NCBI GenBank assembly: GCA_035650735.1
Contig: DASRGZ010000204.1
Span: forward strand, 1-48,986
Direction: 5' to 3'
DNA length: 48,986 bases
DNA from: Chthonomonadaceae bacterium
GTDB taxonomy: Bacteria; Armatimonadota; Chthonomonadetes; Chthonomonadales; Chthonomonadaceae
The notes under the pieces were generated by a model. That model did not search any database. It worked only from the letters and a program-made list of their open reading frames with translations, and had not been told where the DNA came from. A program made the position numbers and the translations under genes. This document shows, piece after piece, positions 2,817 through 44,469 of this stretch. Position 1 is the first letter of the stretch. Each line of letters starts with the position of its first letter.

Positions 2817-3758
2817 CTATGCCTTGTCCCATTGCCGTCCGATCCATTGGAGGACCGGGTCCAGGGGAAACTCGTTGGCCTTGGCGAGCAGCGTATCAAT
2901 GCGATCTACGGCGTCCAGGCCGATGTCTTCGCCCAGGTCCGGGTTCAGTCGAATGTAGCAGTCGTCCAGAAGCTGCTGGCACTGATAATCGGCCAGGCCG
3001 ATCCCGGCCTCAAAAAGAAGTTCCACAATGGTAAAACCCCACTGCTTTAGCCCCCAATCCCCATCGCGCGATTTGATGTTCCTGAGCCGCATGCCGGTGC
3101 CGATGGACATCAGCACGACATCCTCCAGGCGCTGCTTCCCGCCCACCTGGGGATTGATCGCCTGGGCCAGGGCGCACATGCTGGGGTTGTTGGCTACCAC
3201 GCCGCCATCAATGAACCCCTGGTAGATGGGAAAGTAGGTTGGCGCGGCAGTGGAGCGCATGATCACATCAATCGCCCGCTGCGGGCCATCCGAGTCCGGC
3301 CCCTCGTAGTTATGGAAGAACTTGGCCTTCCAGGTTTGGGGCTTGCCGGGCGGTACAGGATCGATCGGGTTCTGGCTGTCGAGCTGGTAGGTGGCGACGA
3401 GCACGTGCTTGGGGAGCAGATCGTTGAGGGTGATGTCGCCGATATAAGGATAGATATTCTTGTAGCGGTTTTCCGTGGAGTAGCGCGCGCCGACCAGGCC
3501 CCAAAGGTCGCCAATGTTATGCAGCAAGTCATCATGGAAGATGTCTCTGCCGCGGTCTCGATACAGGCCGACCAGTTCCGCGGGGGTAAGGCCCTTGGCC
3601 AGGGCGATAGCGAGCACGGCTCCGGTCGAAGTGCCCGCGAAGAGATGCACCTGGGAGAGGAAGTTAGGCTTGGCGGCAACGATGCGTTCGAGGAGCCGGG
3701 CGGTGAAGATGCCGCGGATGCCGCCGCCGTCAAGGGAGAGAATGCGATAGGTTGCCAT
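2817..3758 (-). CDS. Patatin-like phospholipase
   Basis: LSLDGGGIRG, GTSTG nucleophile elbow, AAPTYFP and DGGV motifs. Confidence 0.93.
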   Translation of the reverse strand: MATYRILSLDGGGIRGIFTARLLERIVAAKPNFLSQVHLFAGTSTGAVLAIALAKGLTPAELVGLYRDRGRDIFHDDLLHNIGDLWGLVGARYSTENRYKNIYPYIGDITLNDLLPKHVLVATYQLDSQNPIDPVPPGKPQTWKAKFFHNYEGPDSDGPQRAIDVIMRSTAAPTYFPIYQGFIDGGVVANNPSMCALAQAINPQVGGKQRLEDVVLMSIGTGMRLRNIKSRDGDWGLKQWGFTIVELLFEAGIGLADYQCQQLLDDCYIRLNPDLGEDIGLDAVDRIDTLLAKANEFPLDPVLQWIGRQWDKA

Positions 3759-3930
3759 TGGTTTGTACTCCTGAGGATAAACCGAGACGCTGCCGCCCTG
3801 ACCGGGAACGGTTTCTCGGCGATCGGTATGATCTGTAACCTTCGACGGACGCCTCGGGAAAGCCTGCTCCTTGCAAAGGAGGGGTGAGGTCGGGTCCTCG
3901 GGGTCCGCGTAGCAGGAATACCAAGTTTTG

Positions 3931-3964
3931 TAGCGAATATATCATAATAGCGAATATATCATAA
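3931..3964. repeat. 17-bp perfect tandem duplication in a divergent promoter region
   Basis: tagcgaatatatcataa x2 (3931-3947, 3948-3964). Confidence 0.85.
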
Positions 3965-4059
3965 TGAGGTATATCGCCGTCCTAAAGACAGTAATCACGG
4001 CATTATTTTCAGGTTTATCGGCGTGTAAAGCTAACACAACGCATGAGGGGAGTAACCAG

Positions 4060-4449
4060 ATGGCTTCGCCTTCGCAATCCAGCGCAGCGCCCAACGAACT
4101 TAAAGTGTTCCTCATCGGGGCCATTGGTGGCCTGCTCCTACTGATGGCCCTGGTCACCTGGGCCACAAATGCCCAGAAGCAGCCCCCTCCGCCGGCGCAG
4201 GCGTCCGAGGCGCAGCGCGCGCAGATAGAATATATCCAGCATCCTGAAGAGGCGTCGGCGCGTGTGGATGAGATGGCCAAACAGACCGGAGGCGATTTTA
4301 GTCGGCTTACGCCCGAGGATCAACAATGGCTGGATGGGATGACGGCGGGCCACGGCGCCCAGATGCTCTATGCCAGGGCGCAGGCGCAAAAGCGCAAGGT
4401 CGCGGCAAAGACGCACCGAGCAAATACCAGCCGGGCAAAAATCTATTGA
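4060..4449 (+). CDS. Small single-TM hypothetical protein
   Basis: ATG at 4060 after GAGGGGAG RBS; hydrophobic stretch VFLIGAIGGLLLLMALVTW. Confidence 0.7.
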   Translation: MASPSQSSAAPNELKVFLIGAIGGLLLLMALVTWATNAQKQPPPPAQASEAQRAQIEYIQHPEEASARVDEMAKQTGGDFSRLTPEDQQWLDGMTAGHGAQMLYARAQAQKRKVAAKTHRANTSRAKIY

Positions 4450-4474
4450 CATTATGAGTAACTTTCGATACTAT
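4446..4474 (+). promoter_or_regulatory. Near-consensus sigma70 promoter upstream of the DUF1559 operon
   Basis: TTGACA(4446-4451)-17 nt-TACTAT(4469-4474). Confidence 0.75.
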
Positions 4475-4646
4475 ATGTGCAATGGGATTGCGCAGTAGGT
4501 TGCAGCTTGCGGTGACGCGGAACACATGCGGGTCAGTAGAGCGTTCTCATCGTACAGCATCCCTTGCATGGGCTGTGGGTGACGCGGAACACATGCGGGT
4601 CAGTAGAGGCCTATGTGTGCAGTGGGATTGCACGGTAGATTGCAGC
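4471..4646. repeat. Nested repeat-spacer-repeat units: outer 36-bp degenerate pair, inner 31-bp exact pair with 36-bp insert
   Basis: Outer copies 4471-4506 and 4611-4646 (31/36 identical). Inner ggtgacgcggaacacatgcgggtcagtagag at 4511-4541 and 4578-4608. Confidence 0.9.
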
Positions 4647-4859
4647 GGAGCGGCTCGCAGGGGCAGCAGCGAGCAGAATAGTAGGCCCCGCCGCGACTGA
4701 GAGCAGTAGAGCAGTGTTGTAAGTGTGTCTGGCCTGAGCCGCCACGCAGCGTTTGTGGTCCTTTCCCGATAGGGAAAATCTACCACATGGGGCTGCGCGG
4801 GGGCTTAGCAAGCCAGGGCCGATGAGGCAAGTTAGCCATTAAGAAAGAGGAGGAAGCTT

Positions 4860-5690
4860 ATGCAACGTCGTAGAGGCTTTACCCTGATTGAATTGCTCGT
4901 CGTCATCGCCATTATCGCGATTCTTGCCGCCATCCTATTTCCGGTCTTCGCCCAGGCCCGCGAGCGAGCACGCGCCATCTCCTGCGTCTCTAACCTCAAG
5001 CAGATCGGCACGGCGACCAACATGTATGTGCAGGATTACGACGAGACGTATCCATGCGGTTGGGGCTCGCAGGACGCCGGACTGTCCATGTGGCGAGTCT
5101 CCCTCCAGCCCTATGTTCAGAAGTACGGCAATCCGCAAGACCCCGTAGGCTATAGCAATCCGCGTGGGAACTATGGCGTCTTCGTCTGCCCCGATCAGCC
5201 CGGCTCAGCGGAAAGCTACGGCCCGACCAGCTATGGCTACAATGCCTTTGGCGGCATGACCATCGGCTGGGTCGCCACAACCCCCGACGGCTCGCAGGGA
5301 GCCTTCCCGGGCGCCAAGCTGGCTTCCATCAAGAAGCCGGCCGAACTAGTCTCCTATGCCGATGCAGCAGAAGTCGGCAAGCGTTCGAAGAGCCTCGATC
5401 CGAACTTCGACCAGGGCGGCGCCGGCTGGACGGGCTGTGGCGACGATAATCCCGGTCCCTACTCCTTCAACCCCGACGTCTGGCAGGAGGACTGGAGTGA
5501 CGACTGGGACTTTGGAGTCCCGCTCCAGGAGGACTGGCCCAGCTGCCGCAACGGCGGACGACGGCCCATGCCGCGCCACCATAAGCATGTCAATGCGGCT
5601 TTTGCCGATGGGCATGTCAAGGCGCTCCCCTCCAGCTTCATGAAGGTCAAGGTCAATAGCCCGGAGGACCTGCTGCACAACCACGACTGA
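4860..5690 (+). CDS. DUF1559 / prepilin-type N-terminal cleavage-methylation protein with H-X9-DG motif
   Basis: [43 protein letters not shown] and C-terminal RH...[10 protein letters not shown]. Confidence 0.95.
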
Positions 5691-19779: not shown

Positions 19780-19866
19780 CCCGTCGCCCACCTGCGTGGG
19801 CGAAAGGACAAGCGGCAATTCCGTATCGGTCGCGGCATCCCCGTCGCCCACCCGCGTGGGCGAAAG
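19780..19866. repeat. Two palindromic 27-bp repeats separated by 33 bp (type I-E-like mini-array geometry)
   Basis: cccgtcgcccacc(t/c)gcgtgggcgaaag at 19780-19806 and 19840-19866; period 60. Confidence 0.8.
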
Positions 19867-39442: not shown

Positions 39443-39471
39443 ATCATAGCATCTATCCCTGGTGCCGTCAA
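39443..39471 (-). promoter_or_regulatory. sigma70 promoter (partly duplicated upstream)
   Basis: Minus strand TTGACG-17 nt-TATGAT with extended TG. Confidence 0.75.
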
Positions 39472-39540
39472 TGTCATCCCCGCCAGCGAGGGCTTCCTCG
39501 TCGCCCCGCCCATAGCATCTATCCCTGGTGCCGTCAATGT
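39445..39540. repeat. Repeat-spacer-repeat unit: 30-bp exact repeat, 36-bp insert
   Basis: catagcatctatccctggtgccgtcaatgt at 39445-39474 and 39511-39540. Confidence 0.92.
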
Positions 39541-44369: not shown

Positions 44370-44469
44370 CGCTAAAAAATACCCATCTCAGGGGAGCAAC
44401 TCCTCGCAAAACATCGTCTGGCGTTGTCCTGACTGCAACGCTAAAAAATACCCATCTCAGGGGAGCAAC
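44370..44469. repeat. Repeat-spacer-repeat unit: 31-bp exact repeat, 38-bp insert
   Basis: cgctaaaaaatacccatctcaggggagcaac at 44370-44400 and 44439-44469. Confidence 0.92.

Follow-up and report, generated by a model that had tools for sequence, protein, structure and literature searches.

Off-target integration of spacers tends to be regarded as a by-product of laboratory work, rare and held in check by host factors. In Escherichia coli cells that overproduce type I-E Cas1-Cas2, spacers are integrated at off-target 'neo-CRISPR' loci, and circumstantial evidence has been put forward for two other species (Nivala, Shipman and Church, 2018, as cited in PMC7054753, 10.1101/148544 and PMC6698737). 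In vitro, Cas1-Cas2 of Pyrococcus furiosus performs full-site integration at repeat-like non-CRISPR sites of a plasmid, marked by G or C 30 bp apart (available text of PMC6698737). The fidelity of integration is controlled by DNABII proteins, namely HU in Thermotoga profunda's type III-A system and IHF in type I-E, and HU suppresses off-target integration in vitro (available text of PMC13769266). Cas1 is also described as binding stem-loops (PMC9456107, in the part available).

The DNA considered here (the window) is a stretch of 48,986 nucleotides from a Chthonomonadaceae bacterium (contig DASRGZ010000204.1 of assembly GCA_035650735.1; genome G000), in which one pair of direct repeats encloses another behind a promoter consensus. 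Judging from its geometry and sequence, this arrangement very probably arose by two off-target CRISPR spacer integrations, one within the other: an older event of a 36/37-bp, I-C-like class, and a younger one made by the resident type I-B Cas1-Cas2-Cas4. The features of the region are listed below in window coordinates, with their basis in brackets.

4060..4449, + strand: small gene without Pfam family, in relatives often beside DUF1559 genes (gene neighbourhoods)
4446..4474, + strand: sigma70-type promoter consensus TTGACA-17-TACTAT, predicted start ~4481 (sequence; similar promoter before the orthologous gene in relative G023)
4471..4506, + strand: putative older target duplication, copy 1, 36/37-bp class, I-C-like geometry (repeat pair; target-matrix score of its ends)
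4476..4494, no strand: DNA palindrome with 8-bp arms over the predicted start, a possible operator, duplicated by the older event (sequence, folds)
4507..4510, + strand: left remnant of the older 37-bp insert (sequence)
4511..4541, + strand: putative younger target duplication, copy 1, 30/31 bp, I-B geometry, within the older insert (repeat pair, cut-site motif)
4542..4577, + strand: 36-bp spacer-like insert from the sense strand of the genome's own mutY (donor G000:C93:29051-29016, 35/36, 5' flank CCG)
4578..4608, + strand: younger target duplication, copy 2, exact (repeat pair)
4609..4610, + strand: right remnant of the older insert (sequence)
4611..4646, + strand: older target duplication, copy 2, 86% identical to copy 1 (repeat pair)
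4733..4810, no strand: dispersed hairpin element in the leader, separate from the nested scar (z -5.7; 4 other copies at 67-74% identity)
4860..5690, + strand: DUF1559 / N-methyl (pilin-like) gene 3' of the leader, ribosome site intact (family match)

The anatomy described in an earlier note on this DNA is exact, as the outer pair, the inner pair, the 36-bp insert and the overlap with the -10 box were all reproduced. The outer copies are 36 bp long and differ at five positions, all A/G (4475, 4482, 4492, 4494 and 4499, with their partner positions). Copy 1 begins inside the -10 hexamer of a promoter that agrees with the consensus at 10 of 12 positions; promoter-like sites in the surrounding 1.3 kb number three, against 0.8 in shuffled sequences. 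The inner pair is identical over all 31 bp. When the inner unit is taken out, the outer period of 140 less the inner period of 67 leaves 73, which equals 36 + 37. An exact 17-bp tandem duplication (3931-3964) also lies nearby, in the AT-rich gap between the small gene and a divergent patatin-family gene.

These nested repeats are not due to chance, since 119 of the genome's 136 unique-repeat pairs with periods of 40-130 crowd at periods 58-80, leaving three at 40-57 and 14 at 81-130. Nor are they an assembly artefact: the repeat is present in the reads, because unitigs of two studies (runs X2 and X6) break exactly at the 31-bp repeat. They stop at 4540, resume at 4579 and show no differing letters, which is what an exact repeat of 31 bp forces; runs X7 and X8 leave the repeat uncovered. 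These four runs, all as contigs, are the ones covered out of eight listed, among which there is no RNA run. A second assembly (L206), which may be the source sample, is identical to the window over 3091 of 3091 bp. Among metagenome contigs, a 24-mer of the inner repeat has a single locus with the same allele, and among viral contigs it has no match. Zero- and single-insert alleles, which the earlier note had proposed as a check, were sought and none was found; unitigs are unable to show one, the 40 relatives have no homologous leader and the metagenome contigs carry the same allele.

The inner insert is identical at 35 of 36 bases to the coding strand of a gene with HhH-GPD and NUDIX_4 families on contig C93, which from family knowledge we take to be mutY. 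Its only other copy in the genome lies inside this gene, where CCG stands directly 5' of the donor, and a type I-B cas locus is found on the same contig, 21 kb away. For the older 37-bp insert, no donor was found in the genome itself or in viral contigs. An IS or MITE insertion was rejected as a source, as such an element would be expected to show a multicopy insert, terminal inverted repeats and a short duplication, whereas this insert has one other copy and a duplication of 31 bp. A canonical CRISPR array was rejected as well, the two pairs consisting of unique local sequence that is unlike the C93 repeat beyond the cut-site motif. Two further candidate matches were dropped. Positions 4652-4671 match a recF-like gene at 20 of 20 bases (G000:C171:37396-37415), with no flanking duplication and a weak E value (0.04), and this match is probably chance. 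A 23-nt match to contig C145 belongs to the dispersed hairpin family represented at 4733-4810, a very stable 77-bp hairpin with at least four other copies and no Rfam match.

Comparable units are spread over the genome. A scan for direct pairs at periods 40-130, covering the whole 6.52-Mb assembly of 224 contigs with the large array left out, returned 272 pairs, including the 136 with unique repeats. At periods 58-80 there are 201 pairs, and removal of 28 multicopy units leaves 173 on 109 of the 224 contigs; most counts below are based on the 151 of these scars with repeats of at least 26 bp. The scar load of the genome is placed at 119-173, the set being heuristic and including some pairs that are repeat-element or protein-repeat artefacts. 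Periods peak at 61, 66-68 and 72-75. In the 64-70 class, which includes the inner unit, exact duplications of 29, 30, 31, 32 and 33 bp number 9, 25, 12, 7 and 1, lengths that fit a 30-bp ruler with chance extension, and insert lengths peak at 36-38. The same scan of relatives, which took in 15 of 40, each in part (55-400 kb), with G007, G010, G015, G017 and G023 among those left out, gave six raw pairs outside arrays in 2,267,643 bp, where about 70 would be expected. These six comprise two microsatellites, two repeat-element pairs, one I-C-type repeat and one unclear case.

The size classes also differ in age. Pairs are exact in 60 of 86 cases at period 64-70 and in 17 of 52 at 71-80 (p 4e-5), which supports a 36/37-bp class older than the 30-bp class. 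The proposal of the earlier note that two sequential insertions occurred, an older 36/37-bp class followed by a younger 30-bp class, is supported by the genome-wide comparison. The window holds the only true nest of the genome; were scars scattered at random over non-coding DNA, the chance would be about 0.035. Four more duplication-insert-duplication units occur in the window, at 643-742, 39445-39540, 44370-44469 and 19780-19866 (periods 70, 66, 69 and 60); the insert of the first (673-712) comes from a multicopy repeat element, and the last looks I-E-like. Elsewhere, a unique 30-bp flank is present in three copies around two inserts (G000:C224:43547-43710), as in a neo-array that has grown twice, and at C198:74296 a young scar abuts one of the older class.

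The type I-B locus on C93 contains cas6, a gene without Pfam match in the cas8 position, cas7, cas5, cas3, cas4, partial III-A genes, cas1, cas2 and a WYL gene. The partial III-A block lies between cas4 and cas1 and includes a Cas10-family gene (G000:C93:12660-14258) of 532 residues in which no HD domain was detected. Cas1 (G000:C93:8250-9428; L126:251-1429) has a conserved catalytic region and, internally, an acidic insertion some 60 residues long, which is found throughout a clade of I-B Cas1 that is present in at least 12 relatives. The resident array (G000:C93:2501-7721) has 80 repeats of 29 nt, a period of 65-67 and 79 spacers, 72 of which measure 36-38 bp. Its leader junction (G000:C93:7692-7730; L125) is without GG, and its far end abuts an ATPase gene, presumably IS21-like. 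The repeat is 29 nt in this array and 30 nt in four relatives, while scar duplications are mostly 30 bp.

In relatives, arrays beside cas1 have 29-nt repeats with period 61, 30-nt repeats with periods 63-73 or 37-nt repeats with periods 71-79; from repeat shape, we take these to be types I-E, I-B and I-C, respectively. The three scar size classes match these array geometries of the order. No I-C or I-E cas1 was found in the assembly, which is 97.6% complete (I-C by tblastn), and the genome has four solitary 37-nt I-C-type repeats (C33, C89, C97 and C173). Away from cas genes there are also solitary I-B-type repeats (C89, C121 and C152) and degenerate I-E mini-arrays (C109 and C126). About 100 bp separate the I-B repeat of C89 from the I-C repeat there, and the solitary repeat of C121 stands between two promoter-like sequences.

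A target code can be read from the scars. When both ends were read 5' to 3' in 30 scars of length 30, 24 of the 60 ends had GG at -3,-2 (background 8.7%, p 6e-11); just three had T at +1, 39 had A at +12 and 31 had C at +13. A matrix trained on these ends gave 6.4-8.1 bits to the real I-B leader-repeat junctions of G008, G040, G012 and G025, all outside its training set, which places them in the top 0-0.12% of intergenic sites. The genome's own junction reaches 1.2 bits in the 29-nt register (top 9%) and 3.8 when read as 30 nt (top 1.4%). The whole on-target site of its own array is surpassed by about 1.6% of intergenic sites, and none of the other four genomes examined has a leader junction decayed in this way. 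In the window, the inner repeat, also outside the training set, is among the highest 0.24% of intergenic sites (in the most favourable of three registers), with A12-C13 at its left cut and GG at -3,-2 at its right cut. Its target resembles a leader-repeat junction. In this mutY-derived scar, GG stands on the side opposite to the leader side implied by PAM orientation. With a matrix from other 37-class scars, the outer repeat's ends are among the highest-ranking 0.7% of intergenic sites. The likeness of 37-class ends to the end of the repeat ATTGAAAC averages 4.4 of 8, against 3.3 of 8 in controls.

The inserts also preserve a record of their donors. Full-length self donors were found in the assembly for eight of the 86 young scars (seven single-locus, one from a repeat element), for two of 13 in the 58-63 class and for none of the 52 in the older class. 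For the other 78 young inserts, no donor was found in the assembly. Self donors exist for none of the 79 array spacers, compared with the eight of 86 young scars (p 0.005). Among the seven single-locus young donors, the 5' flank is CCG in four and CTG in two (chance p 0.006), a result from seven cases with one-base boundary choices: one CTG comes from reading the opposite strand and shifting by one base, and the seventh flank is CCG only if a G is counted into the insert. CCN appears as an I-B PAM in Table 1 of PMC8482600. The array's own PAM is not readable, because its spacers have no match in phage records. Three of the 151 inserts share 16-17 nt with array spacers, whereas random controls give 0.27 at 14 nt or more. 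The 43.5-kb contig C15 supplies four of the nine single-locus self donors, of two size classes, at 2024, 4215, 17136 and 32865 (P 6e-6). A replication terminus was considered as the reason for this cluster, and neither a skew switch nor a dif-like match was found there.

Scars avoid genes. On a map from a simple gene caller (79.5% coding), 141 of the 151 lie outside coding sequence (101 intergenic, 40 touching a gene edge) and 10 lie within genes, compared with 3850 of 5000 random 30-mers within genes. Eight of the 10 intragenic scars are in frame, some of them ordinary protein repeats, and those at C125:44700, C68:4604 and C198:74296 add 22-23 residues to proteins. At C125:44700, in a glyoxalase-family gene, exactly the 23 residues of the scar are missing from the G001 and G038 orthologues (two of two aligned), so that duplication and insert are the derived state there. 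The locus in the window is probably neutral.

The earlier note had regarded the promoter as a hot spot, which the genome does not bear out: a sigma70-like promoter is near five of the 140 scars in non-coding DNA and near 179 of 4000 control sites (p 0.76). The older insert may simply have offered the younger event a harmless landing place. The A/G-only divergence of the outer copies is mildly unusual (p ~0.01, post hoc). Transitions make up 97 of 142 mismatches in scars genome-wide, and same-type concordance is absent (25 vs 20 pairs).

The sequence of events would then run as follows. A Cas1-Cas2 of 36/37-bp repeat length, I-C-like, would have joined a 37-bp fragment to the palindromic site over the promoter start, where staggered strand transfers and gap filling, following established adaptation chemistry, would have duplicated 36-37 bp. 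The stem-loop binding described for Cas1 (PMC9456107) fits the palindromic nature of this site. The resident type I-B Cas1-Cas2-Cas4 would later have cut a 36-bp prespacer from chromosomal mutY beside a CCG PAM and joined it inside the older insert, at a site like a leader-repeat junction, with duplication of 30-31 bp. The younger event could be fixed because it landed in already dispensable DNA. No crRNA would be expected from the scar, as its flanks are not the cognate repeat, and a mutY spacer with a valid PAM could therefore be tolerated.

Several other explanations have to be set against this reading. A Cas-independent process, either templated repair of staggered breaks or some unknown integrase, might make 30-37-bp duplications around captured fragments. 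It would account for an assembly with no cas1 that belongs to the 37- and 61-period classes, for a scar ruler of 30 where the array repeat is 29, and for relatives of the same Cas1 clade without such a load. However, the scars fall into three narrow size classes that each have a CRISPR geometry of the order, their motif recognises real leader junctions, their donors share a flank, their inserts overlap array spacers and the genome retains solitary I-C and I-E repeats, which makes such a process very unlikely. A chimera of assembly or amplification has a negligible chance of being the answer. The assembly is fragmented (224 contigs) and no listed run contig spans the whole stretch, but the unitigs break at the repeat in two studies, one mismatch separates the insert from its donor and five separate the outer copies, and gene avoidance, frame bias and a sequence motif are beyond what a chimera can yield.

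Two further alternatives concern function. The repeats could act through RNA, either as a conserved cis-regulatory leader or as a small array that produces guides, as their place behind a strong promoter consensus, the hairpin kept in both outer copies and the three of five changes that face U would allow. This is extremely improbable: 4446-4850 is unmatched in the 40 relatives, whose matches cover just the ribosome site and gene start, and orthologous leaders are unrelated. The conserved leader RNA, which the earlier note had named as an outcome that would refute its reading, is therefore not supported. G023 has the same gene order and an unrelated leader; its distance from -35 to ATG is 266 bp, and the one here is 274 bp after subtraction of 140 bp, a weak agreement in length only. 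Over positions 3700-5000 of the window, Rfam gave nothing at gathering level and one weak hit (E 4.6), which was rejected; the fold of the whole leader has z -1.7. The preserved RNA pairing also suggested in that note is unlikely as well. Both outer copies fold the same hairpin, which is a DNA palindrome, at z about -1.4 (not significant), and the hairpin of copy 1 is cut by the predicted start. The flanks are unlike a Cas6 substrate repeat, and the predicted transcript cannot pair with mutY mRNA since the insert is mutY sense. An effect on control of the DUF1559 operon is unlikely but deserves more weight. On this account the origin is the same and the outcome not neutral, the older event having duplicated an operator-like palindrome and the younger having moved its second copy from 73 to 140 bp. 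The palindrome does have 8-bp arms over the predicted start, and its symmetry is broken by one A-to-G change in one copy and by two in the other; on the other hand, its arms are decayed in both copies, no regulator was identified and 4476-4494 has no further genomic occurrence within two substitutions.

Under the preferred reading of two nested integrations, the high load calls for a cause of its own. The HU/IHF family PF00216 occurs in one of 41 genomes of the order, not in G000, and in nine of 14 control genomes; the order is largely without DNABII proteins. This absence is rejected as the sole cause and is at most permissive, because relatives without HU/IHF show no scar load. The internal insertion of Cas1 was likewise rejected, being clade-wide, with sampled clade members free of the load. 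The decayed leader junction is the genome's own and can account for the young class only. The load may thus reflect the lack of HU/IHF in the order and, for the young class, the decayed junction. Tentatively, and with the balance slightly against it, the lineage could be a natural CRISPR-integrase mutator, in which I-C, I-E and I-B modules successively wrote chromosome-wide under these conditions. Its scars would supply in-frame peptides, duplicated promoter elements and array seeds, and would preserve the target code, the PAM and an unfiltered prespacer pool, including those of lost integrases. If so, they form a record of integrases in an uncultured organism, with a donor hot spot on one contig.

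More than 100 fixed events point to Cas1-Cas2 as a steady supplier of insertion mutations, from which in-frame protein inserts and new arrays also arise. Such scars yield an integrase target code and a PAM without experiments, a code that can be checked against real leader junctions, and they reveal self-derived prespacers that autoimmunity purges from true arrays. Comparison of genomes then makes it possible to test what adaptation costs and how new arrays originate. The mechanism itself is known from overexpression in E. coli; what is new here is the scar load, the three integrase classes, the cross-class nesting and the target code validated on real junctions. A search of the openly available literature found no paper on genome-wide natural scars, and an earlier report may exist.

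The young class resembles the canonical I-B array of the genome (G000:C93:2501-7721) in its spacers of 36-38 bp and period of 65-67, and the same integrase is likely; unlike in the array, scar flanks are unique local sequence and self-derived inserts persist (8/86 vs 0/79). The situation recalls the promiscuous integrases of T. profunda and type I-E without their host factor, as far as the available text of PMC13769266 describes them, in that G000 lacks PF00216, whereas its relatives without PF00216 carry no scar load. As with P. furiosus, non-CRISPR targets share positionally conserved bases with the repeat; there, the available text concerns plasmid targets in vitro with other conserved positions, and here the targets are fixed chromosomal scars whose code would be GG at -3,-2 and A12-C13. 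The E. coli neo-CRISPR loci, as portrayed in the citing texts, resemble these scars in that, away from the array, a spacer-length insert is flanked by a chromosomal site duplicated over the length of a repeat. Those loci are rare events of laboratory overproduction, while this genome carries 119-173 fixed natural sites in three size classes, with one cross-class nest and one site with three repeats (C224:43547).
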